NCBI GenBank assembly: GCA_951406725.2
Contig: OX597822.1
Coordinates: 868,001-932,000, forward strand
Source: Octopus vulgaris
Taxonomy: Eukaryota
DNA length: 64,000 bases
Direction of reading: 5' to 3'
Shown here one piece after another: positions 2,931 through 63,358 of the stretch; position 1 is the stretch's first letter, and every line of letters starts with the position of its first letter. The notes below the pieces were generated by a model, which was given only the letters and a program-made list of their open reading frames with translations, was not told the origin of the DNA and did no database searches. Made by a program: the position numbers and the translations under genes.

Positions 2931-3286
2931 TCTACAGTACAATTAGTAGTGGTAAAAGGATAAACAATAGTAATAAGAAGAAGAACGCCAACATTAACCG
3001 CAGAATCACCGATCCTAGAACAACACCACAAGGCATACTCTTCCACTTCAGATCACTAAGACGTATCTTGTAATGTGGGCGACAAAGATGAAAAATGGAA
3101 AGCTGTTCCTATAAGAAGGGCGGGCAAGAGCCAAGAGGACAAAAGAAATCGATCGGAAGACTTGATCGGAAGTTAGTACAATACTAACAACAACACCATT
3201 AATATGCTCACCACCAGCAGCAGAAGCAGCAGTAGCAGAACCACCACTACCACCACCACCTCATTACACAGGTATATATTATAAAA

Positions 3287-3520
3287 GGCGGCGAGCTGGC
3301 AGAAACGTTAGCACGCCGGGAGAAATGCGTAGCCGTATTTCGTCTGCCGTTACGTTTTGAGTTCAAATTCCGCCGAGGTCGACTTTGCCTTCCATCCTTT
3401 CGGGTTCGATAAATTTCATTACCGGTTTCATTACTGGGGTCGATCTAATCGATTTAATCCGTTTGTCTGTCCTTGTTTGTCCTCTCTGTGTTTAGCCCAT
3501 TGTCGGTGGTAAAGAAATAG
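3287..3520 (+). mobile_element. SINE family A
   Basis: GGCGGCGAGCTGGCAGAAACGTTAGC head, B box GAGTTCAAATTCC, shared core. Confidence 0.88.
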
Positions 3521-3747
3521 GTATATATTATAAAAAAGAATTATTATTCACTACAAACTTTCGATCATGCACAGAAAAAAAGCTCAATTCAGTGGTGATT
3601 TAAGGAAGCCAGTTTCAAACTTTTCAATCACTTTGTGAAATACATTTTTCACGTGCACAGACGTATGCAAACATTGCAGTAAATACATCTGCAGTCACCG
3701 AAGCAGAGACACAAAGATATACGAAGGTACGCCTGCCGCTACACAAA

Positions 3748-5539: not shown

Positions 5540-5985
5540 CACTCTAGGCACAAGGCCCGAAATTTTTGGGGCGGGGGACAGTCAATTAGATCAACCCCAG
5601 TATGCAACTGGTACTTAATCTATCGACCCCAAAAGGATGAAAGGTAAAGTCGACCTCGGCGGAATGTGAACTCTGAACGTATCTATTTCTTTACTACCCA
5701 CAAGGGGTTAAACACATAGAGGACAAACAAGGACGGACAAACGGATTAAGTCGATTATATCGACTCCAGTGCGTAACTGGTACTTAATGTATCGACCCCG
5801 AAAGGATGAAGGGCAAAGTCGACCTCGGCGGAATTTGAACCCAGCACGTAACGACAGACGAAATAGCTACGCATTTCATCCGGCGTGCTAACGATTCTGC
5901 CAGCTCGCCGCATTTTCCAGCTCGCCAGCAGACGAAATATCGCTAAGCATTTCGCCTGGCATGCGAACGGTTCTGCCAGCTGACG
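5540..5985 (-). mobile_element. SINE family A (dimeric)
   Basis: Two cores joined by the CTACCCACAAGGGG...GGACAAACAAGGAC linker. Confidence 0.88.
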
Positions 5986-9535: not shown

Positions 9536-9591
9536 TACTAACATACACGTACACTCATGCACACACACAGACAAACACACATATGTATATT

Positions 9592-9982
9592 CCTTTCTAC
9601 TCTAGGCACAAGGCTCGAAATTTGGGGGGAGGGGGCTAGTCAATTAGATCGACCTAAATACGCAACTGGTACTTAATTTATCAACCCCGAAAGGATGAAA
9701 GGCAAAGTAGATCTCGGTGGAATTTGAACTCAGAACGTAAGACGAAATACCTGTTTCTTTACTACCCACAGGGGCTAAACACAGAGGAGACAAACAAGGA
9801 CAGACAAACGGATTAAGTCGATTATATCGACCCCAGTGCGTCACTGGTACTTATTTAATCGACCCCGAAAGGATGAAAGGCAAAGTCGACCTCGGCGAAA
9901 TTTGAACTCAGAACGTAGCGGCAGACGAAATACTGCTAAGCATTTCGCCCGGCGTGCTAACGTTTCTGCCAGCTCGCCGCCT
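9592..9982 (-). mobile_element. SINE family A (dimeric, near-intact)
   Basis: Tail CTTTCTACTCTAGGCACAAGG through head CCAGCTCGCCGCC on the + strand. Confidence 0.9.
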
Positions 9983-10672
9983 GAAACACACGTATGTATA
10001 TACAAGTTGTTCGGGCTAAATTTGACAGTTTGCATAAAAGGAAAAGACAGCACAATACCCTATTCAAAAATAAAGCATTCTAAAATTTCAAGAAATATCA
10101 ACTAGATTATGGCCAAGAGATAACAGTTTCTTCAAAGTAATTGCCCGGAATCAGGCCCATGCGTTCCTCACTGTGACCCTGGGAAGATCTTCCCAACAAC
10201 TTCCTTATCTTCGTCACCAACTCGCAGAAAGGTTAGTGCCTTTCTTAAACACGTCACACACATACCGATTCATGGGATTACAATTGAGGGAATTAGGAGA
10301 CCAAAAATGTGGGTGATGTCCTCGAAATTCTATGACAACCACGTCTAACTCTTTCCAGAGGCATGACAAAGAACCGATTCCTGCTGCCACACGCATATGG
10401 GTTTCCAGCAGCAAAGCCCTCCAACTAAGGTTCGATCCCAGCCTCCAGCAGCATCTGAATTGAGCTTAAGGCACTACACAAAGATGTGGAGATAAAATCC
10501 GGCGTGCGGTTCAGTCCGAACACCTGCTATGTCCCTTCCTGCTGGTTTCAGCTTCATATTCTCCGTCGCAGCTGTCTATGTCACGTATTATAGCCTTTAC
10601 GGAGTTCACAAAGCATTGGGTAGCAGTCATGATGTCGGCATTTTGACAACCGGCACTAACTATAGGTAACTG

Positions 10673-13442: not shown

Positions 13443-13445
<3 letters not shown>

Positions 13446-13936
13446 GGCTCTCACTAAACAAATTGAAGGCATGGCTGCTCTCGATTATTGGGATCGCCTT
13501 AAAGCCTTGAAACTTTACTCCCTCCAGCGTCGCCGTGAGCGGTACATCATTTGTACGATGTGGAGAATATACCGCCAACATTGCCCAAACGACCTAAACA
13601 TTAGCTTCAAGGTTCATCCAAGACTTGGACCACGGGCTATACGTCCCCTGCCCAATTCAAGATCACAACATACATGTACACTGCAACATAATTTCTTTTC
13701 CTCAACAGGGAGATCAAAGAGGAAAAGGATCCCATCAACTTTAAACGGAGTCTGGATAGATTCCTTCAAAGAATACCAGATAAGCCACCCATAATTGGAT
13801 ACAACTCACCCAACAAGAACTCACTACTTGAACAAAACTTGACTTAAACAGGATTCGAATAATCCTATCAGGTGGTGCTATTAAGTTAGACATGGCCTGG
13901 ACCAATCTTTGGTCGAAACATATCTAAGTTTATCTA

Positions 13937-18566: not shown

Positions 18567-19330
18567 AAACTTAGATATGTTTCGACCAAAGTTTGGTCCA
18601 GGCCATGTCTAACTTAATAGCACCACCTGATAGGATTATCTAAATCCTGTTAAGTCAAGTTTTGTTTATGGTCCATTCAAGTAGTGAGTTTTTGTTGGAT
18701 GAGTTGTATCCAATTATGGGTGGCTTATCTGGTATTCTTTGAAGGAATCTATCCAGACTCCGTTTAAAGTTGATGGGATCCTTTTCCTCTTTGATCTCAT
18801 TCGGGACAATGTTAAATAGGGCAGGGCCTGTTGAGGAAAAGAAATTATGTTGCAGTGTACATGTATGTCGTGATCTTGAATTGGGCAGGGGATGTATGGC
18901 CCGTGGTCCCAGTCTTGGATGAACCTTGAAGCTAATGTTCAGGTCGTTTGGGCAAATTTGGCGGTATATTCTCCACATCGTACAAATGATGTACCGCTCA
19001 CGGGGACGCTGGAGAGAGTAGACTTTCAAGGCTTTAAGGCGGTCCCAATAATCGAGAGCAGCCATGCCTTCAATTCGTTTAGTGAGTGCCCTATGGGGAG
19101 ACCACAGTGGGCAGCAGTATTCGAGGTGTGGCCGTACAAAGGAGGAGAAAAGTGGTATGATGACACCTTGTTCTCTGGACCTGGAAAGTTCTTAAGATCC
19201 AGGAACTCATCCGACGAGCTATATCGACCTTATTGTTGATGTGTGCGCTCCAACTGAGATCGTCATCAACAATTACATCCAGGTCTCTGATATTGTTAGA
19301 GGCTGTGAGCGGTTCCCCTGAAGGAAGAGA
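18567..19330 (-). mobile_element. CR1/L2-group LINE 3' fragment
   Basis: ORFs 18655..19065 and 19091..19372 (IRDLDVIVDDDLSWSAHI; LDYWDRLKALK); same family as 13443; sits in the (TA) region of a SINE B copy. Confidence 0.88.
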
Positions 19331-20003: not shown

Positions 20004-20008
<5 letters not shown>

Positions 20009-20568
20009 TTTAACAATTAAGGATAATCTCTTAATAAGGGATCTTACTTTGTCCCTCCTAGTGTGAGGCATTTATGTGTAATAATGCCCTCTATAAATAT
20101 AGATATAATTAATTTGTTCAAAAGAAAAAATTATTTTCGGATTCTTTTCTTTATGAGGTTTTCACGCTAGCTACCCGATAATTTCTTGTTAAGATCCCTT
20201 ATTAAGAGATTATCCTTAATTGTTAAACTTATTCCGAAATACTTTTCATTACCCGACATGCAGTTCGTAAAAAGCCCGCCATTTACCGGATATATGATTT
20301 ATAAACATTCCATGTGCTTGGCCGGAGTGAGCAGTTGTCTGTTCGTCTTCGCTACGTAAGGTTGGTAGTTTATTTATGATGTGTTCAGAATCAGTTCTGC
20401 TGACGATCATTAGACGCAAGTTGTATGTGAAATCACGGTGATACAGAATAAATTCATTTTTTAAATGTCTTGCTTTGAAAAACTGCATTTGGGTGTGATT
20501 AGTATAATTTTGGTAGTAATGACTTTGTCCCTCTAGTGTGAGGCATTTATATATATATGCCCTCTATA
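20004..20568 (+). mobile_element. Non-coding hammerhead-bearing element (retrozyme/Penelope-type) with terminal direct repeat and 5' inversion
   Basis: Direct repeat 20046-20095 / 20522-20568; inverted repeat 20004-20046 / 20190-20232; HHR at 20394; (TA)n flanks; homologous to 62474-62830. Confidence 0.75.
20394..20449 (+). ncRNA. Type I hammerhead ribozyme (stem II closing pair mismatched)
   Basis: GTTCTG-CTGACGA-tCAT..ATGt-GAAA-TCAC g GTGA-TA-CAGAAT. Confidence 0.7.
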
Positions 20569-20592
20569 CAATATATATATATATATATATAC

Positions 20593-22039: not shown

Positions 22040-22700
22040 AGTTTCAAAATTTGGCACAGGACTAGAAAGTTAGTGGGATAAGTCGATTACATTGACCCCA
22101 GTACTCAACTGGTACTTATCGACTCTGAAAGGCTGAAAGCCAAAAATTGACGCAGGCGGAATTTGAACTCTACCTAATGACGGACGAAATGCCGCCTAGC
22201 ATTTTGCCCGGCGTACTAACGATTCTGCCATTTTACCGCCTTAAGCTGTCAATAGATATTCTTTTCTACTCTAGGCTCGAAATTTTTCGGGAAGGGGGCC
22301 AGTCGATAAGATCGACCCCTGTACGCAACTGGTACTTAATTTATCAACCCCAAAAGGATGAATGGCTAAGTCGACTTCCGCGGAATTTGAACACAGAACG
22401 TAAATACAGACGAAATACCTATTTCTTTACTACCCACAAGGGGCTAAACACAGATGGAACAAACAAGGACAGACAAACGGATTAAGTCGATTACATTGAC
22501 CCCAGTGCGGAACTGGTACTTATTTAATCGACCCTGAAAGGATGAAAGGCAAAGTCGACCTCGGCGGAATTAGAACTTAGAACGTAACGGCAGACGAAAT
22601 ACGGCTACGCATTTCGCCCGGCGTGCTAACGTTTCTGCCAGCTCTCCGCCTTTTTTAAAATTTTAGCACAAGGCCAGCAATTTCTGGGGAGGGGATAAAG
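22040..22700 (-). mobile_element. Cluster of SINE family A units
   Basis: Three cores in the same orientation. Confidence 0.85.
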
Positions 22701-27458: not shown

Positions 27459-28372
27459 CGAGGTGGTATCAAAAAATTCTAGGACTAGTTTCGTATCACG
27501 CCAGCAGATGGCAGCACACAGTTGCGTGCGTAATGAGAGCTAGCAATGACATTCAGGAGGCAGTGTGCCAAGTGATATCGCTGTATTTACTTTTCAAGTT
27601 GTGAAATTTGTGTTTTTGTGATTACGTGTTTGCTGTCGTCTGCAATTTTGTCATGGACAGGAACAAAGAGCCAAGGTGAAATTTTGCATTAAACTTGAGA
27701 AGTCTGCTACAGAGACATTGACCATGCTTTTACGAACTTACGGCGACAAGGCAATGGGTCGTACGGAATGTTTCGGGTGGCAACGGCGCTTCAAAGGTGG
27801 AAGAAAGTTCCCTGAAAACGATGAGCGATATGGAGTCCTGACACGAGCGTTACCCCTGGGAATGTGGTATTGTACATGAAAAACTCATTCTCCAGGGCCA
27901 GGCTGTCAATCGAGAGTTCGACTGCGACGTTTTTGAAACGTCTGATGGAGGATATTCGGCAAAAGCGACCGGATCTGTGGAGTGTGAAGAATTGGATTCT
28001 TCCCAACGACAACGTACCCTGTCACCGAACTCTCATCATTTTGAGTTTCTCGCTAAAAGCAACATGGTATCGCTTCCTTCCACCCCATTTGCTAGATCTA
28101 GCACCTGCAGACTTCCACCTCTTTCTTTCCCAAGATGATAATGCAGCTCAAAGGTCACCGTTTTAACACCGCCGTCAAGATCCAGAGCGTATCGCAGAAG
28201 GTCCCCGACTTACGGAAAACAACTTCCAGGCCGGATTCAAAAAGTGTCAGGAACGCTAAGGCCATTGTATTACTGTGCAAGGTATTTCGAAGGAGATGAA
28301 GTTAAACCATAAGTAAATAAGTTAGATTTTCATTAAACATAACTAGTTCGGGGACCTTTTGATACAACCTCG
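27459..28372 (+). mobile_element. Internally deleted mariner, 914 bp
   Basis: TA-CGAGGTGGTATCAAAA...TTTTGATACAACCTCG-TA; KFCIKLEKSATET HTH remnant and DLAPADFHLF motif. Confidence 0.9.
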
Positions 28373-36258: not shown

Positions 36259-38711
36259 TATGTTTGACTTTTGCTTTATGTCTGTACAAGTTGGCTCCAA
36301 GTCTCACCCAGAGACCTCAAGAGACGACAGGTTGTAAGTTCACGTTGTTGTTATGCCTAGTGTGCCATATATTTGGGGGATTTTTTTGTGTTGTACTAGT
36401 GAATGTCTAATACATAAAAAAAAACCCTTTTGTTTTAAACCTTGGGATTACATAGAGAGTATTTTGCGTAGGATATGAGCAGTTCCCATGAGCACTATCT
36501 TTTGAATTTCTGCCATTTTGGGGTTTCCTGGTATCTGAGTTAGGTAGCAATCAGTCCCTTTCGCTATCATTCCCAGGGCACCTATGACAACAGGTATTGT
36601 TTTAGTCTTCAGCTTCCACATTCTGCTGATTTCTATTTCAAGATCTTTATATTTGCTCAGTTTTTGGTAGGTCTTGACAGATACGTTTATATCGATTGGG
36701 ACAGTCATATCAATGAGGAGGCATGATCTTTGTCTGAAGTTTTTCACTATGATGTCTGGCCTATTTGCATCTATCTTTCTGTCAGTTTGAATGGTGAAGT
36801 TCCAGAGGAGTGAGATGTGGTCATTTTCAAGTACTGGAGGTGGATTGTGTTCCCACCATTTTTTTTCATGGGGCAAATCCATATATATATACATATATAT
36901 ATTGTGCAGCTCTATCATGCCTGTTGAGGTACTCTGTAGGCGCTAGAAGACTGCATTTGGAGACAACATGATCAATGGTTTCATTTTGTTGTCGGCATAC
37001 ACGACATGTTGGGATACTGCCGTTCTTTAATATGTTGGCCTGGTAGTTTCTTATTGGTAGGCATTGATCTTGAGCTGCTATGATAAACCCCTCTGTTTCA
37101 GATTTTAAGCCAGAGGCCATTAGCCATTAATGAGTCAGGACTTTGTCAATATCTGTATTATTCGCTCTCTTTGGGTATTTGCCATAGAGAGGTTGTTCTT
37201 GCCATTTATTATTCAGAATATCTAAGGCCGAGATTTAGCACAGGTTTTCATGCGCTTAGCTTTTTCTGTGCTTGTTTCTTGTATGTCAATCTCTAATTCC
37301 GAAATTTGTTGTATTCGGAATTCACTTAGATATTCCTTTGCCTGTTTTGTTACTGAGTATGATGCTTTCTTGTTTTCATGTTTTGAGACAAGTTTTAACA
37401 TCTAGTGCTCAGACTTTTCAGGTAGGTGTCTAGGCCAATTGTAGCAATCTTCATTGTTATTGCCAGTTGCAAAAGACCACGGCCTCCCTTTTTCTTGGCA
37501 GATAAAGTCGTTCTGTATCTGCCTTAGGGTGGTGCATTCTATGCATTGTCAACAATTTTCTTATTTTTCTGTTGAGCTGACATATTTCAGTAATTGACCA
37601 GTTAACGATATTGAAACTGTAAGTCACGACTGGTATGGCTAATGCATTGATCGCTTCGATCCTGTTTCTTGCATTCAGCTCTGTCTTGAGTATTGCTCTC
37701 ACTCTTCGATAGCATTCTCTCCTGATCCTTTCCTTCATCTCTGAATGCCTTATTCCGTTCCCTTCAATTACCCCTAGGTACTTGTAGCTCTCCGTTGGGT
37801 CTAGTTCTTTTATGACATTCTGCTGGTCAAGGTTAACGTTAGATGTTTCTGTCATTTTTCCTTTGATAAAGGTAGCTTCTGCACATTTATCGAGGCCGAA
37901 TTGCATTCTGATGTCGTCACTGAATTGTTTGACTATCGCTAGTAAGCCCTTGAGTTGTTGATCATTTTTTGCAAAAAGCTTTAAATCATCCATGTAAACG
38001 AGATGATTTATATTTTTATCAAACATTTTATACGCGTACTGCGCGTCATTGAGCAGTTTTGAGAGAGGTATTAAGGATAAACAAAAGAGGAGTGGTGACA
38101 GTAAGTCACCCTGGAAAATGCCACACGAAATTTTTACATCACCAGCATTTAGGAATTCACTGTCACTGTTCAGAGTTAATGTGGTTCTCCATGATCTCAT
38201 ACTTACAGTCAAGAAGTTTCGCAGAGTTAGGTGCTATCTTATACATTTCAAGGCATTTCCTAATTCAGCTATGTGGTAGGCTATCAAAAGCCTTTTTATA
38301 GTCTATCCAGGCTATTGATACGTTTTTGTGTCGTTTGTGACAATCTTCTAAGATCATCTTATTGACGATTAGTTGGTCTTTACAACCGTAGGATCCACGT
38401 TTACATCCTTTCTGTTCATTAGGGAATATGCTGCTGTCTGTTAAAAAACTATAAGTATATTCCGTCAGGACAGATGTTAGCGTTTTGTACATAGTTGTTA
38501 AGCAAGTTATGGGTCTATAGTTTTTTGGTTCATTTGTTTCTTCACTTTTTGGAAGCAGGAATGTTAACCCATTAACTAGCCAACGAGGCATCCTACTAGG
38601 GTGTTGCAAAACATCATTGTACAGTTCTCTTAGCAGTTCATGGCTCTCTGGGAAGGCATTTAGCCAGAAGTTAGGAATTTTATCCTTTCCTGGAGACTTC
38701 CATTTCCTTGA

Positions 38712-41325: not shown

Positions 41326-42572
41326 TTGGGTTGGCAACTAAGTTCCCACCGTTTTTTAAATTTTGGAATCTATTCTTTTCGAGAGTTCTATTTTTGAATC
41401 AGTCTGGAATCTATTTTGTTTTTTACTGGTTAATTTTAGTTAAGTTTCGTTTATTTTGAGATCATTAAAATAGAATGTGAAGTTAAAAAAACGAGGATTT
41501 TCGACACCTTCTTTTTGCTTTTGATCAGGGTTCTAAGGCTACAAAAGCTGCTCGCGACATTTGTGCTGTGTATGGAGAGGTTACCATAGATGAAAGCACC
41601 GCTCGTCATTGGTATGCCAAGTTCAAAAATGGAAATTTTGATCTCAAAGACGTACCTCGTTCTGACCGTCCAGTTGAGTTCGATGAAGAGCGATTAAACC
41701 AACTTTTGCACGAAAATTCTCGTCAAACAACGAGGGAACTGGCAGAGAAAATGGAATGCTCCCACACTGCTATAGAGAAGCATCTTCACTCGATGGGAAA
41801 GGTTCAGAAGTATGGAGCATGGGTTCCGCATGCTTTAAGTGATAACAACAATCTCCACTGGTTTGCTTGCTCGTCACTGCTCAGGTCATAGACATAAGCA
41901 ACGATTTCTTTACCGAATCGTTACTGGCGACGAAAAATGGTGCTTGTACATCAATATGAAGCAGCGTAAGGAATGGCATAGCCCCGGTAAACAAGCGACA
42001 CCGTGCGTGGAACAAGATCTTCATCCGCGTAAAACGATGTTGTGCGTTTGGTGGGACTGGGAAGGAATTATCCATTACGAATTGCCTGAACGGAACCAAA
42101 CGGTGAGTGCGGAAATCTATGTTTAACAGATGGACCGACTGAACGCGGCTATTCAACAGAAAAGACCTAATCGGCAGCAAGGAGTTCTTCTGCTGCACGA
42201 CAACGTCCGCCCTCCTATCGCCAATATGACCAAGGAAGCCATTCAAACGCATGGCTGGGAAGTGCTGCCACACCCGCCGTACTCTCCTGATTTAGCAGCA
42301 ACGCATTTCCACCTCTTTCGATCTCTTTCAAATGCTATGCGCAGAGTTTTGTTCAATATTGATGCAGAAATGAGCGCTTGGTTGGATCAATTTTTCGAGT
42401 CGAAATCGGGTGATTTCTACCAACGAGGTAAAGAAAATCTTGTGGAACGTTGGGAAGAAGTTGTAAACAACAACGGTGAATACATTATTGATTAATTAAT
42501 TTTAATTTTTTATTAAACATTAAAAAAAAATTTAAATAAAAAAAAACGGCGGGAACTTAGTTGCCAACCCAA
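41326..42572 (+). mobile_element. Near full-length mariner (D,D34D family), 1247 bp, transposase pseudogenised
   Basis: TA TSDs; TIR TTGGGTTGGCAACTAAGTTCCC.CCGTTTTTT; WVPHAL, TGDEKW, HDN, YSPDLA motifs; frameshift near 41850 and stop near 42124. Confidence 0.96.
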
Positions 42573-44700: not shown

Positions 44701-47700
44701 CACTGGGGACGTTTAACGAACACCGGGGACGTTTAACATGTGAGAGCGATAAAACATTGCTCCGAAATCTATCCACAAACATCGGAAACAAAGACATCGC
44801 ATGAAGCCAAAAAATAACTGACAAAGATTGAACTATATCCGAGTAAGTAATACTCATTGAAATTTTCCAAACGAAATGATGTATTTTAACTCGATATCAT
44901 CTCCACCTCTAACACAACACATGTAAACATGCGTGGAATATTACGATCCATCAACACCAGATCATCTCCGGTCCCAAACACCATGTACAAAAAAAACTAC
45001 GAATAAATTAAATAACACCGATATTATTCAACCCAAGAATAACAATCAGGAAGCGCGCACTTTGAACCTGTTACACAGAAAGTACGAAAAAGTAAACGTG
45101 CAAAACAATGTGACAACAGAAATGAACGGACCGGTACCCTACGAAAATGACGACCGTCAAAATAATGGGCCGGACGTTGTTCCTCATGTCCCGCAAATAA
45201 AACCAAAAAGCATAAATGGACACGTGAGGAATACATTTCAATCCTACACGCATACTTTACAGCAGTGCTCTACCTAAAGAACGAAAACACAACAACATAT
45301 ACATATAAAATATGGAAGAAAAATAACATAAATAAAGACTTGGATAAAGCAATGAACCCTAATAAACTAGCTAACGTACGAAGATATATTCTCAACGCAA
45401 AAAAATATCAGAAATAGAAATAGAACATTTAAAAGAAAATATACATCAGGAAAATGTAGATAGAAGCCACACAACAATGCCAAATAATATGAACACTGAG
45501 ATAGTAAGTTTTACTATCCCAACAAAAACGATGTAAACTAAAAACAACAAAACCAGACCGTAAGGATGCAAAATAATGCACAACAAGCAGCAAGTCAAAA
45601 CATGACAGACAAACATACGAATGAGAAAGAAAGCGACACAAATCTAAAACCTGGAAACGACGAAGGGGAGCCTAATGATTATGACACTATAAAAAGTAGA
45701 ATAATCAAAGAACTGAAAACCACAGAGCTCAAAATGGACCACCGACCATACCTCCCAAGAATCAAAATAGACAAAAAAACTACATCAATTATAAATAGTA
45801 TAAACCTAGCCGTCACAGAACTAATAGCCACTGAAACAAAAAAATAGCAATATCACTGAGCTAAATGACTTGTATATACAGCAGCCACAAAAGAAGCTGG
45901 ATACTCACCCAAACCCGCCCAAAGAGGAGTACCACCACCCAAACAAACCCTGTGGATAAATAACATCCAAAACAAAATAAAAAAATGTGAAAAGATCTGT
46001 CTATTCGTAATGAAATCAGTAGACAAGTCAACGCTATTAAGCAACAAAAAGAAAACAAAAATGCTGCGCAAATATAACTATCACAGAAAAAGATTTACCT
46101 GAGATAAAAGAAAAGCTGAAGCAAGATATCCTTGCCAAAGCTCAAAGGATCCGCCGGTACGAGAAACGCCAACGTTTCTTTGAACAAAACAAACAGTTCA
46201 ACTCCAACCCCTCTACCAAGAACTTGGCAAATATAAAATAGACATCACTGCAGCACCAACGGCAGAAGAATTGGAAGAATTCTGGAGAGAAATATGGTCG
46301 GCGAACGAACAGCCAAAAAAAAGGAGTATGAAAATAACAAACTCGGCATCTGAACAACTTTGGAACCCCATAACAACTGAAGAGGTCACCCAGGCACTGC
46401 AAAGACTAAGTGACTAGAAGGCACCTGGGCATGACAAGATCCTCAACTTCTGGCTGAAATATCTAACAGGAATGCACAAAAAGCTGGCTGAAAACTTTAA
46501 CAACATACTAGCAGAGTCAGAGACAATGCCTGAATGGCTCACGAAGGGGAAAACCATCTTAATTCCCAAATCCAATGAGACAGCAAAACCAGAAAACTAC
46601 AGACCTATAACCTGTCTCCCTACTGTGTACAAAGCATTTACTGCAGCAATATCACAAAGATTAAACAAGCACCTGGACGAAAACAACCTGTTTCCAGAAG
46701 AGCAGAAAGGATGCCGCAAAGGCTCATATGGCTGTAAAGATCAACTAATGATCAATAAAGCCATAACTGAAGACAGCCACAGAAAGAAGAAAGGCCTCAG
46801 TATGGCCTGGATTGACTACAGAAAGGCGTTTGATAGCATCCCCCACACATGGATCCTCGAAACACTAGCCATGAACAAAGTAGCACCAACAATTATAAAA
46901 TACATTGGACACTCTATGAATAAATGGCAAACAGTGCTACAGCTCCAAACAAAATAGGGACTCATGAAAACCAAAGCCATCCCCATTAGAAGAGGAATAT
47001 TCCAGGGAGACACGCTCTCTCCACTCCTTTTCTGCTTGGCACTGTCACCTCTATCTGATATGCTAATTAGAACTGGATGCGGATTTAAATGTTACGGCAA
47101 AACGATCAGCCACCTTTTATAGATGGATGACCTAAAACTATACGCTGCAAATGACAAACAGCTGGAAACACTACTAAAGACAGTTCATGGATTTACCAAA
47201 GAAATAGATATGAAATTTGGATTAGAAAAATGCGCCAAAGTAACCTTGAAAAGAGGAACACTAGTTAAGAGTAGCAACATCACACTAGATAAAACCAATG
47301 AAATAAAAGAATTAGACCAAAGCCAAACTTACAAATACTTAGGAATCCATGAACTAGATAAGACACAACACACACAAATGAAAGAGAAAATTAAAAAAAG
47401 AATATTATAGACGAGTTAAATCAATACTAAAAACAGAGCTCAATGCTAAAAACAAGATAATAGGTATTAATACTTTAGCTGTTCCAGTTATAAGTTACAG
47501 CTACAATATCCTTAACTGGACACTAAATGAACTGACCAAAATAGATAGGAAAACAAGAAAAATAATGACAGGATCTAGGATGCATCACCCAAAATCTGAT
47601 ATAGAAAGGCTATATATACAACGTATAGATGGTGGTAGAGGCCTTATACAGCTGGAACACTACTATAAAATAACTACCATAGGACTGCAAAAATATCTAC

Positions 47701-48829
47701 TTCAGAAGGAAGGAAAACTGATACAAATAGTGGCAAAACACGAGCAAAACAAAAAACTGTTCTCAGTATTTAAAGAAGCTGACAAATACAAACAAGAAAT
47801 CATCTTCTCCTAACAAATATGTAGAAGAAGAAGAAGAAGAAGAAGAAGAAGAAGAAGAAGAAGAAGAAGAAGAAGAAGAAGAAGAAGAAGAAGAAGAAGA
47901 AACAACAACAAAAGCTATAAAACAAATGAAATCCAAACTAAAAATAGAACAGCAACGAACCATGATAAAACGATGGCAAGAAAAGCCCCTTCATGGTAAA
48001 TACTGGACTAAACTAAACGCAAAAGAAATAGACAAAGAAAAATCCCAGCAATGGTTGAGAAGCTCAGGACTCAAAGCAGAACAGAGGGATTTTTAATTGC
48101 AGCACAAGACCAAAGCCTCCCCACCAGAAATTACCAAAAACATGTAATGAAAAGAAATATTACAAGTAACTGCAGAATATGTGGAGATGGACAAGAAACA
48201 ATAAATCATATCTCTAGCTGCCCAGTCCTGGCTAAGAAGGAATATATTCACAGACACGACAGAGTTGGGACCTACATACACTGGAAGCTATGTCAACATT
48301 ATGGAATAACAACAGAAAAAAGATGGTATAAGGCACCACCAGAAAAGGTCACAGAAAACGAGAAAAAACCATACTCTGGAATATGCCAATACACACAGAT
48401 AGAGAAATTAAGGCCAACAGACCAGATATAGTTGTCAGAGACCATGAAGAAAAAAATGCTTTCTAATTGATGTATCAATACCAGCAGAGGACAACGTGTC
48501 TCTAAAAGAAATGGAGAAACTTTCAAAATACAAAGACCTGGAAATAGAGGTAACTAGAATGTGGAATCTGAAAACAGAAACAATTCCTATCATAGTAGGT
48601 GCATTAGGCATGATAAAAAAATATTCAGACAAATGCATAACAAAAACACCAGGACTTACAAACACATATAACATACAGAAAATTGCACTACTAGGCACTG
48701 CACACATCCTACGCAGAACACTTTCCATGCAATAACCATCAGAGCATCACAACAAATCACAGCACATACCCAAGGCACACAGAGCTGCTCTCGGTAGTGA
48801 AGTGAAAGCACGCTATAAAAATAAAACTA

Positions 48830-57134: not shown

Positions 57135-58609
57135 CTACAAATTTTGTTACAAGGCCAACAGTTCTGAGGAATGTGTGGAGAATTAATATACATCTACCGC
57201 AGCGCGGAACTGGTACTTATTTTATAGACCGGAATGGATGAATGGCTAAGTCGAGCTTGATGGAATTTGAATTCAGAACGTAAAGAACCAGAATCAATTC
57301 CTATTTCTTTACTACCCACAAGGGGCTAAACAGAGGACAGACAAACGGATTAAGTCGATTATATCGACCCCAGTGCGTAACTGGTACTTATTTAATCGAC
57401 CCAGAAAGATGAAAGGAAAAGTCGACCTCGGCGGAATTTGAACTCAGAACGTAGTTGCAGACGAAATACCTGTTTCTATTTCTTTACTACCCACAAGAGG
57501 CTAAACACAGAGAGGACAAATAAGGACATGTAGTCGACTACATCGAGCCCCGTGTTCAATTGCTACTTATTTTATCTAAATAGAAAGGATAAAGTTAAAG
57601 TCAAACTCAGCGGAATTTGATCTCAGACGTAAAGACGCCGAAATGTCACTAAGCACTTTGCCCGGCGCGGTAACAATTCTGCTTGCTATCTTTGAATATT
57701 GGTTTCAAATCTTGGTACAAGGCCAGCAATTTCGGAGGCGGGGGCTGGTTAATTACATCGATTCTAGAATTCAATTGATACTTATTTTTATCGACTCCGG
57801 AAAGATAAAAGACAAAGTCGACCTCGGCACTATTTGAACTCAGAACCCGAAGACGGACGAAATGCTGCTAAGCATTTTATCGAATACGGTAGCGGTCTTA
57901 CGAACTTGCTACCTATAATTATTGGTTTTAAATTTTGGTACAAGGCCAGCAATTTCGGAGGATAGGATGAGTCGACTACATCAATTCCAGTGTGCAACTG
58001 GTATTTATATTATCGACCACGAAAGGATAAAATCAAAGTCGACCAGAATTTGAACTCGGAACGAAAAAGACGGACGAAATGCTGCTAAACATTTTATCCG
58101 GCGCGGTAACGCTCAACTAGCTCGCCATCTTTAAAATTTCAAATTTTGGCAGAATGGATAGGGTAAGTTGATTATATCGACTTGAGTGTTCAACTTGTAT
58201 CTATTTTATTCTTTTCTACTCTAGGCACAAGGTCCAAAAATTTGGGGGAGGGGCGCCAGTCGATTAGATCGACCCCAGTACACAACTGGTACTTAAATTA
58301 TCGACCCGGAAGGGTGAAAGGCAAAGTCGACCTCAGCGTAATTTGAACTCAGAACGTAAAGACAGACGAAATACCTATTTCTTTACTACCCACAAGGGGC
58401 TAAACACGGAGAGGACAAACAAGGACAGACAAACGGATTGAGTCGATTACATCGACCCCAGTGCATAACTGGTACTTAATTTAATCGACCCCGAAATGAT
58501 GAAAGGCAAAGTCGGCCTCGGTGGAATTTGAACTCAGAACGTAATGGCAGACGAAATACTGCTAAGCATTTCGCCCGACGTGCTAACGTTTCTGCCAGCT
58601 CGCCGCCTT
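57135..58609 (-). mobile_element. Head-to-tail array of about 7-8 SINE family A units
   Basis: Repeated AAAGTCGACCTCGGCGGAATTTGAACTCAGAAC-type cores, all co-oriented. Confidence 0.88.
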
Positions 58610-61220
58610 CAAATACTGCGAATGAGAACGCACTCACCGGCAATTACAGTGACTCTTTAGGTTAGATTGACGATTAATGAAGGACTAGAGGTGATGTCGT
58701 ATAACGTGCGTCACTGATTTAAACTGCATGCTGGGTTTTTGTACGAACATGCATGTGTGCATATATACAAGTGTGTGCATGTGTGTGTTGTACGCACGTG
58801 CTTGAAACATGTGTTGGCGCGTGTATGTGGGCATGCGTGTGCGATGAATATATCACGTGTCAATATTTTCATCAATCTATGTGACTTCGTGCGCAAATAT
58901 ACACACAAAATTATTATTGTCACTATGCATGTGTGTTTAGGCGATCAGTCAAGCAGTGTATGCATTCTGTCTGTCTATATGTGTATGTGCGTGTATGGCT
59001 GTTTGTGTTTGTGCTGTGTCTGTGTATCTGTATGTGTTTTGCGTACGTTCCATGATTGCATGTGTATGTGCCTGTGTGTGTGTCTATGTGTCTGTAAGTG
59101 TGTACGTTTGTGTGTGTGTATGTGTGTTTGTGTGGTGTGTGGTGTGTATGTGGTGTGTGTGTGTTTGTGTGTGTATGAGTAAGTGTATAAAATACACTTA
59201 ACGAACATTGACAATAAATTAGATTATATGACTTCGCGCGTCATCCATCAATCAAGACTGCATAAGAGTGTACGTATTTCCATGTCTATGATCATGTATG
59301 TATGTGTGCGCGCGCATGTGTGTGTGAGTGCATGTGCGTGTGTGTGAGTGTATGAGTTTATGCAAAGACAGACTAAAGGACGTATATGTAAGTTACAGTA
59401 AGACTTATTTATTTATATAAACTCGGGCGCATCGCCACAGCATCTCACCACGCCTTGCTTCCGTACGTACATAAACAACCACAATATCAAATATCAAATA
59501 TGGTGTTATGGTTTTTATGACCGTGAAACCTGATAAGTGGAGAGCATGAGCAGTTCGTCACTTAATTGGTAAGTTAGCCTTCACGAGACAACATTTAAAT
59601 AGCTATGTGTGACATGATGCACGCTAAGGGGTGCCGCGTTATCGACACTGCACGCGTCATCCAAATGGTGAATCTGTGACGTATTCCATGATGCTTTGTG
59701 TCATTAAGGAACTACTGAACACGGAGAATTTATGCAGTATATTTCGGATTAGCTAACGTGCAAGCGCTCACCTTTTCTTTTTACTACAGCTAGAAGAGAT
59801 ATCAAATTTATTCTTACGAGATAACGAGACACCCTTCAGTTCAACAGTGCTAGCTTTGAATACCGCAAGAGCCGTTTTTTTTTTGTTTTTTTTATCTACC
59901 CATGGTATTTATAATGAAGAAGCGTTGCTTGGTGGTTAAGGTTTTGTTGGGCTCAGGGTCACAAAATTCCGTGAGTCCAACGTGGGTTCGATTCCTGGAT
60001 CGAGTGGCAAGCTATGTCCTTGAGCAAGGCATTTCATATCCTTTTACGTTGGTTCAGGCCAATCAGCTAAGGAAGAGTATTGGCGACCGAAGGTTGACGT
60101 AATTTGTACGTAATTCTCGAGTGATTAATCAAAACATTCACCTTCTGATCTATTCTTTTCTGCCACTATTTACTAGACGACTCGTTGTTTTTGCTCCAGG
60201 ACCATACAGGCAAATTCGGGAAATCCAGTCTATATCTGCCCAACAGTTGGAAATGTCTGAGTATGTTTTTGAGGACTTTGCACTCACTTCTAAGGGTTAG
60301 CTCCACAAATCATATTGTACAATTGCAATCTTCTACTAGTACTAAAGAGCGTGACGTTCACTGCAAGGTTTCCGGACGTCTAAAGACGTCTGGCTCTCTT
60401 ACCCTGGTGGATGCATAGATGGACCCCTGTCTGAAGGGACTGTCTTTATTGTCATTTACATCCAGAAAAAAACTCATTTACTTCCAGGATCGAGGAAAAT
60501 CTTCTGTACTTCTAAACCTGATTCTTTCTGAAAAACACTCCCGATAGACCACAAAATGAATATGCTTTGTGGTCGTCAAAAGTCGGAGGCGTTCTAGAAT
60601 TCTGTTTCGGTGGTGGCTACCACATCCATGTCAAGTGATCTGAGATTTTTGAACTAGAGAACATGCTGATCTATGGCACCTACATTTGCACATCTTACTG
60701 AGAGCGACCCATATCTACTGAAGAAGATAAGTGGAGAGGTCGCTCTCCTTTGTCATCAAAGTGGCGGATGGATTGTTCTTTTCCAGGAAAGTGTCCCTTG
60801 AAAGACACTTATAATGTTTTGTTTAAAATTTTCTAAAATTCCAGTACTGCCCGGAAAATTGTCCAAGAGAGCATGATACATGTCACTTGATGTTCTCATT
60901 AATAATCTCTCCGTAGATGTTTTGGAAATGAATTTTCAAATTCTTCTTTAGTCATTATTTTGCCTTTATATTGTTTTTTCTTTCAGACAGGCCCTTAACT
61001 TACAGTTATTTCCGTTTATGAAAATGAAATTGACTGTTTTCTATTTATTTGTTCCATTGAGTTAGTCATTCCTGTGATTGTTGTTTCTTTTAGCAATTTT
61101 GTTGTTGGGCTTGTGTTAACCTTTTGTTGTTGTTCGGGTCAAAACGGCAGGTTTTGGTTCTTATTGCGGTGGTTTTCAGGTGTTCTTTTTGTTGTTCTTG
61201 GGGTTGTTTGGGCGACATTT

Positions 61221-62388: not shown

Positions 62389-62443
<55 letters not shown>

Positions 62444-62473
62444 GTATGTATATATATATATATATATATATAG

Positions 62474-62830
62474 ATATATTATATAGAGGGTACTACTATT
62501 CATAGATACCGCACGCTTGAGTTTGTTGCACTGATGAGCATAGAATGCATATTCTGCATTAAGTGCGAAATCACAGGTGATATGTAACTAAATTCTTTTT
62601 TTAAATGACTTGCTTTGAAGTTTTGCATTCGGTAAAATTTGTTTATTTTAGTAGTTTTGACCGCAAGGGTCCCTCCTAGCGTGCGGTATCTATGAATAGT
62701 AGTACCCTCTATATAATATAAATGAACATTTTCAAAGTGGAAAAATTTACGGATTTTTTCTCTTACGAGGTTTTTCACGCTAACTACTGATGATTTCTTA
62801 TAAAGATTTTAAAAAAGATTTTAAATAAAT
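62474..62830 (+). mobile_element. Hammerhead-bearing element of the 20004 family, with 5' inversion
   Basis: Inverted repeat 62474-62517 / 62678-62720; shared blocks TTTTTTAAATG.CTTGCTTTGAA, GTCCCTCCTAG.GTG, GAGGTTTT(T)CACGCTA.CTAC. Confidence 0.78.
62525..62588 (+). ncRNA. Type I hammerhead ribozyme, intact core
   Basis: GTTGCA-CTGATGA-GCA..TGC-GAAA-TCAC ag GTGA-TA-TGTAAC; predicted cleavage after AUA at 62582. Confidence 0.85.
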
Positions 62831-62853
62831 ATATATAGTTATATATATATAAG

Positions 62854-63066
62854 AGAACTACTCTACATTAAGAGCAAATCCGTTTCCCGCAATTCAGGCA
62901 AATTCTTCGCAGTGAACATATAGAAAATTGGGCAGATAACATCAAACCAAATTTCACAGTCCCCCCCTTCAACCAGTGCAAAGACACAATCTCTCAACTA
63001 GAACGTTTGAATAAAGAAACTTTTTTCATTGAAAAATACAGAACACGCCTTAATATGCTCGCATAA
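62854..63066 (+). pseudogene. Penelope-like element GIY-YIG endonuclease, C-terminal remnant
   Basis: Manual translation RTTLH*EQIRFPQFRQILRSEHIENWADNIKPNFTVPPFNQCKDTISQLERLNKETFFIEKYRTRLN; matches the R...H...H...E..I....LN pattern. Confidence 0.72.
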
Positions 63067-63358
63067 CCAACTTTTATCTTTTTACATATTTCAATTCACG
63101 ATTATATCTCTGTAGATAAATCCCCTCACTAAACAAGGTTTTCGAAACTTGTCTTTGTCTGTACATATATATTCCCCTCCCATTACTGAAAGCTGAACAG
63201 TTATGTCCCTTACCTACAACAATAACAATAATAACGATAACCAATTACCGCCCTTTATTTATCTACTTGTGAAGCCATTCACTCTTGAATTTCATCACAC
63301 ACAACATGGACAAAATTTCTTCTTAGGAGAAAATACATATTCAAATAACTAAAACATA

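Follow-up and report, generated by a model that had tools for sequence, protein, structure and literature searches.

A type I hammerhead motif in a solo repeat insertion of octopus DNA, likely from a non-autonomous Penelope-like element

The closest described systems are the metazoan non-LTR retrozymes and the hammerheads in the pseudo-LTRs of Penelope-like elements (PLEs), and the accessible text of bioRxiv 10.64898/2026.07.22.740005 argues that the former derive from the latter, with solo monomers as their likely immobile offspring. In the parts of the sources available, PLE insertions are marked by truncation and an inverted copy at the 5' end, by partial tandems, by a tail of 30-40 bp on one side and by a bias towards microsatellites (PMC8557442), and PLEs tend to insert beside existing copies (PMC6765202). 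Both DNA strands are nicked and extended where the DNA is AT-rich, priming takes place at two positions downstream of the hammerhead, and the ribozyme in the same account needed protein and, in the portion available, was not required for insertion in vitro (PMC11167929). Stem III of animal motifs is usually 1-2 bp long (PMC4209133), and animal type I motifs are known to cleave as dimers by way of a palindromic helix III (PMC4209133; PMC6155905). According to the available text of PMC7229834, retrozyme monomers cleave at about 0.8 per min (coral) and 0.1 per min (mussel), a mussel family without most of the loop I-loop II contact bases still cleaves, and axolotl dimers cleave much better than monomers, including Amex2 with a U.U at the base of helix II; among predicted Xenopus retrozyme dimers, only one of nine cleaved in vitro (bioRxiv 10.64898/2026.07.22.740005, in part).

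Two motifs of this kind, here called the 62k and 20k copies, lie in the window, i.e. the whole 64-kb stretch of DNA that was analysed. Like the retrozymes of coral, mussel and axolotl, as described in the accessible parts of PMC7229834 and bioRxiv 10.64898/2026.07.22.740005, the octopus element combines a canonical type I hammerhead with a short, non-coding, low-GC unit and, apparently, thousands of copies, solo monomers being common in those systems as well. Its unit is 476 nt long compared with 170-400 nt (PMC7229834) or 51-972 bp (bioRxiv 10.64898/2026.07.22.740005), and it differs from the metazoan retrozymes in a longer, two-part stem II, in a 12-nt near-palindromic stem III and in showing no two-hammerhead tandem at the two loci. 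With the PLE pseudo-LTR hammerheads, again as far as the available text of PMC4209133, PMC11167929 and PMC8557442 goes, it shares the type I topology, a U-rich upstream and an AU-rich downstream sequence, a palindromic stem III, 5' truncation, an inverted 5' copy, a partial tandem, microsatellite flanks and two 3' termini downstream of the ribozyme. Unlike them, it does not have the minimal build and carries no attached RT-EN ORF, and its termini are spaced by about 130 nt whereas the PLE tail measures 30-40 bp (PMC8557442, in part). Core and type I topology are also those of RF00163 (Hammerhead_1, the Schistosoma Sm-alpha / newt satellite type), although stem I of the 62k copy has a one-base bulge where RF00163 has an internal loop. 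No description of a cephalopod hammerhead or retrozyme was found in the literature searched, with paywalled papers, repeat libraries and some supplements outside the search, and ribozymes go unmentioned in the accessible part of a 2026 Octopus vulgaris repeat annotation (PMC13282606).

The motif and its insertions

The hammerhead motif of the 62k copy (62519-62595, + strand) is real. Its core, CUGAUGA (62531-62537), GAAA (62567-62570) and AUA (62580-62582), follows the type I form CUGANGA/GAAA/UH and is surrounded by three helices with helix I open, as read off the sequence. Stem I joins 62519-62530 to 62583-62595 (two runs of 6 bp around one bulged U), stem II occupies 62538-62566 (4 bp, a 2x2 internal loop, 6 bp and a 5-nt loop) and the near-palindromic stem III covers 62570-62581, with A17 at 62582. 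G10.1-C11.1, all core bases and the 12-bp stem I are intact, and hammerhead numbering places the predicted cleavage site 3' of AUA, at 62582/62583 (+). The full core, three stems and GTTGCA/TGTAAC stem I reported in the initial annotation are thus all present where it placed them; its interval, 62474-62830, spans the whole insertion, of which the ribozyme is 62519-62595.

A second type I hammerhead, the 20k copy, was found at 20388-20455 (+), with the core CUGACGA at 20400-20406, a predicted cut after 20443 and a U.U mismatch at the base of stem II, as in axolotl Amex2. A generic type I descriptor matched two sites in the window, compared with an average of 0.06 over 100 windows shuffled in blocks, not one of which held two. 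In Rfam, RF00163 gave no listed match to the 62k copy at E<=10 and scored 13 bits (E 1.5) on the 20k copy, so that both copies miss the gathering score of 34, and the long stem II is the likely cause of the low score. Across the window, the Rfam matches listed (150 of 195) were microsatellite-driven miRNA matches, all sub-threshold.

The 62k insertion follows a (TCTA)n and then (TA)n microsatellite at 62389-62474, its left flank and likely target site, and reads in the order inverted arm, hammerhead, downstream segment and tail, with about 250 nt of tail after the hammerhead and (TA)n on both flanks. The 43-bp inverted arm (62475-62517, -) is 100% complementary to 62678-62720 and its outer end is terminus 1; the downstream segment (62596-62720, +) runs to the same terminus with 26 mismatches over 124 aligned bases relative to 20450-20575, and an extension (62721-62845, +) passes into AT-rich sequence and (TA)n at a second, fuzzier terminus. 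At 20k, an inverted arm of 43 bp (20004-20046, -), 100% complementary to 20190-20232 and ending outwardly at terminus 2, precedes a 476-nt unit of 34% GC (20046-20521, +) that consists of tail, a 150-nt unique segment, hammerhead and downstream segment. The tail then starts again as a partial direct repeat of 20046-20098 (20522-20575, +, 5 mismatches in 50), making a partial tandem that stops at terminus 1 in (TA)n. Terminus 1 (62720, about 20575) is the end of the 62k inverted arm and the right end of the 20k insertion, and terminus 2 (20232; 62810-62845, fuzzy), about 130 nt further on, is the end of the 20k arm and the right end of the 62k insertion. At these two loci each insertion uses one terminus at each end. 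Both arms measure 43 bp though copied from different parts of the element, with edges uncertain to within several bases because of the (TA)n, and the equal length may reflect chance or a fixed priming geometry.

With 5' truncation, an inverted 5' copy, a partial tandem and a microsatellite target, the two insertions between them show the traits of PLE insertions, and neither contains an ORF for RT and GIY-YIG endonuclease, as an autonomous PLE would. The segment at 20046-20521 is a short non-coding unit with less than 45% GC and a type I hammerhead, as in retrozymes; it has no recognisable coding remnant, its size rests on one locus, and three-frame translation of the 150-nt upstream segment gave no endonuclease remnant. 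Each of the two loci carries one hammerhead (a partial tandem at 20k, solo at 62k), and neither a two-hammerhead tandem array nor an autonomous partner was seen in the 64-kb window. ARAGORN found no tRNA-derived promoter.

Contigs from four of 24 listed sequencing runs (organism labels A, B, D and A) were aligned to 62474-63300, and related sequence is highly abundant under three organism labels. Summed contig depth over 62530-62809 in run X1 was 0.9-5.8e5, with about 1e5 over the motif and 20-60 for single listed contigs, which points to a family of roughly thousands of copies, a summed contig depth not being a copy number. As a sign of expression, cover from run X9 was set aside, its RNA origin being a guess and contigs being unable to show ends, strand or level. 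Past 62809, family cover drops about 50-fold (62810-62865). Among those listed, a few of several hundred, at least three loose ends carry other, varied sequence upstream of 62516, which indicates that the 62k copy is 5'-truncated. Scans further afield yielded no relatives: none of 36 loci from a metagenome pattern scan carried the upstream core or was matched by BLAST, and none of seven from viral contigs had the family flanks by eye, including one (L037) whose 5/6 and 4/4 pairs, counting G.U, were taken as chance.

Immediately downstream lies a separate, 5'-truncated Penelope-like repeat (62860-63300, +), in which 62872-63066 (+) encodes the C-terminal 64 residues of a GIY-YIG endonuclease followed by the stop codon. 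The 64-residue remnant had no Pfam match and no homolog in a word-index search; its first match in the Atlas was a GIY-YIG cluster at 0.94, and a full HMMER search returned 12 proteins, nine of which were scanned, with four reaching the PF01541 cut-off and a fifth falling below it. Several of these relatives have a CX2-5CxxC linker ahead of the C-terminal endonuclease, a mark of Neptune and Nematis elements in the available text of PMC8557442. Many near-fixed differences from its own family suggest that the remnant may be older than the hammerhead copy. A single unit comprising the hammerhead element and the endonuclease remnant, 15 bp apart, was ruled out by the fall in depth. Within the remnant, GAAAC..GTC at 63144-63153 is similar to the 3' portion of a minimal hammerhead, the 5' core not being intact.

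The best-surviving alternative is that the two copies derive from an autonomous PLE as truncated fragments of its pseudo-LTRs, with the 476-nt unit a one-off internal deletion and not a self-propagating retrozyme. This is a real but minority possibility, and it overlaps with the retrozyme reading. The insertion anatomy is typical of autonomous PLEs (PMC8557442, in part), a Neptune-like endonuclease remnant lies only 15 bp away, and upstream sequence varies among family copies; on the other hand, the build is canonical (6-bp helix I, 4-bp helix II and, in the 62k copy, no extra base after A9) and not the minimal one that the accessible text of PMC4209133 gives for PLEs, the 150-nt segment is devoid of endonuclease remnants, and the 50-fold fall in depth between element and neighbour shows that they form no common unit.

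The surroundings are AT-rich, microsatellite-rich animal DNA full of repeats. The commonest dispersed repeat of the window, with more than ten copies that are often partial tandems (1505-1980, 3276-3524, 5541-5984, 9584-9986, 22256-22661, 57189-58610 and others), is SINE-like and presumably resembles octopus SINEs. Two broken elements in opposite orientations (36451-38711, -; 46418-48428, +) have RT and C-terminal restriction-like endonuclease-type motifs and are taken to be non-LTR retrotransposon remnants, 41487-42492 (+) and 27825-28163 (+) are assumed to be remnants of mariner-like transposases, and two fragments in opposite orientation with 88% identity (13445-13931 and 18567-19091) are presumed CR1-type LINE 3' fragments.

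Predicted folding of single and paired copies

The minimum free energy (MFE) fold of the 62k monomer has its core buried in pairs with the 5' strand of stem III, and the stem III pair probability is 0.01. Across five contexts the active monomer fold is 3.3-3.6 kcal/mol less stable than the ensemble, giving a predicted share of 0.3-0.5%, although this gap is not decisive since the folding model takes no account of tertiary contacts or Mg2+. For both copies the homodimer MFE, computed without constraints, is exactly a double hammerhead (-51.0 kcal/mol at 62k, -35.5 kcal/mol at 20k), and the mixed 62k/20k dimer is predicted to form none. The energy gained over two monomers is ordinary, being matched by 133 of 200 shuffles for the 62k copy and 28 of 200 for the 20k copy; it was therefore discarded as evidence and only the shape of the fold counts.

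The initial annotation had suggested dimer cleavage on the grounds of a 1-2-nt stem III loop. Such a hairpin cannot close, and the monomer stem III would instead be one of 4 bp with a 4-nt loop (62k) or a 3-nt loop (20k). The suggestion itself holds up in part: the predicted homodimer is a double hammerhead and the monomer buries its core, although the energy gain is no larger than in shuffles, and on these models cleavage as a dimer is plausible. In one form or another, it is moderately probable that the 62k copy would cleave measurably in vitro. The initial annotation went further in naming it the best candidate for a live ribozyme in the window, whereas it is a solo insertion, truncated at its 5' end, that holds a single hammerhead and lacks a tandem partner.

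That the 62k copy is instead an efficient monomer ribozyme, acting on a + strand host transcript through the locus, is improbable. An intact core, G10.1-C11.1 and 12-bp stem I would allow it, stem III extends 3 bp past the conserved pair compared with the 1-2 bp usual in animals (PMC4209133, in part), coral and mussel monomers do cleave at the rates given above (PMC7229834, in part), and the arms, being perfect, point to a recent insertion (divergence under 6.7%). Against these stand the small predicted share of the active monomer fold in all five contexts, the membership of the 62k copy in a large dispersed family, and the long ORFs of the window, which gave no host gene.

Paired changes between copies

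Proximal stem I of the 20k copy reads GTTCTG/CAGAAT, and it differs from that of the 62k copy at seven of 12 bases with all six pairs kept, through three two-sided changes and one one-sided change. The divergence of this helix (62525-62530/62583-62588 and 20394-20399/20444-20449) compares with 18-21% in the flanks, an excess with a binomial P of about 0.004 at 20%, calculated post hoc and counting paired changes twice. Sliding the stem I partners out of register reduced pairing from 96% to 18-46%, and when seven random substitutions were made in either starting copy, all six pairs survived in about 0.5% of cases (0.55%, 200,000 trials, also post hoc). A pair-shuffle control, with a sample of two sequences, was as high in 61 of 500 shuffles and thus not significant. 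Each copy retains a G.U wobble in stem I, at a different pair, which fits constraint at the RNA level better than DNA template switching. The core is unchanged between copies save for N7, a free core position that is U, C or A among variants.

A third subfamily, known from contig ends, adds changes in stem II. A consensus of loose ends from run X3 (five contigs, ending before 62559) aligns base for base with 62529-62558 and retains the core as well as all six pairs of distal stem II, with two-sided changes at 62546-62558 (U-A to C-G) and 62548-62556 (C-G to U-A) and one further pair altered to G-U. At 62541 it carries an A, which would be able to form a pair with the common variant G62563T (59% of depth in runs X1 and X3) if, as we infer, the two occur on one molecule. 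The corresponding consensus from run X9 (two contigs) has A at N7 and the two innermost distal stem II pairs broken. Among the variants listed (40 of 91), only G62563T falls inside the ribozyme and none in the core.

The initial annotation had read covariation with the copy at 20394 as a sign that the fold was under selection in the active lineages. The retention of pairing despite seven changes fits the covariation, albeit with a two-sequence control that was not significant, and selection on the fold is supported by the compensatory changes in stem I, the retained G.U pairs and the additional pair of two-sided changes in stem II. Such covariation is evidence about the ancestors of the copies and not about the 62k locus. 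DNA-level template switching between stem arms, or chance, could be invoked from the two full copies, the non-significant control and a stem I divergence unusual for a constrained helix, but is extremely unlikely since template copying gives perfect Watson-Crick pairs whereas both copies keep a G.U at different positions, the core is constant save N7, stem II shows independent two-sided changes, and the null gives only about 0.5%.

Likely origin and meaning

The 62k copy is best explained as a type I hammerhead in a solo, 5'-truncated and partly inverted copy in (TA)n, quite likely of a non-autonomous PLE, i.e. a non-LTR retrozyme, with tandem transcripts that would undergo self-cleavage as double hammerheads. 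In the models, pairing of the 5' strand of stem III with the core would hold the monomer off, and two like copies would free both cores by forming a 12-nt stem III duplex and swapping stem I strands. By analogy with the literature, double cleavage of a tandem transcript would release unit-length RNA, which would then be circularised. A Penelope-like RT/GIY-YIG protein, provided in trans, could nick (TA)n, and its priming from each strand, at two positions downstream of the ribozyme, could leave an inverted arm beside a sense arm. Since the 62k copy holds a single hammerhead and has no partner in cis, it would be unable to release unit-length RNA alone, and the loss of its upstream segment makes it, likely, a dead-end passenger with catalytic potential and no role at its locus.

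A further, highly speculative idea is that stem I serves as a lineage barcode, i.e. that rapid, compensated turnover makes subfamilies orthogonal so that each cuts its own kind, and that solo copies, inactive as monomers, are sites at which the plentiful RNA of the matching subfamily cuts host transcripts in trans. It stems from the formation of stem I between two copies in the double hammerhead and from the predicted failure of the mixed 62k/20k dimer, and it is very improbable.

The finding extends a known class of animal element to an apparent cephalopod genome. The family offers a ready test set for switching between an inactive monomer and an active dimer, and for two-site priming by Penelope elements. 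Should it prove true that solo copies are cut in trans in host transcripts, the family would matter much more.
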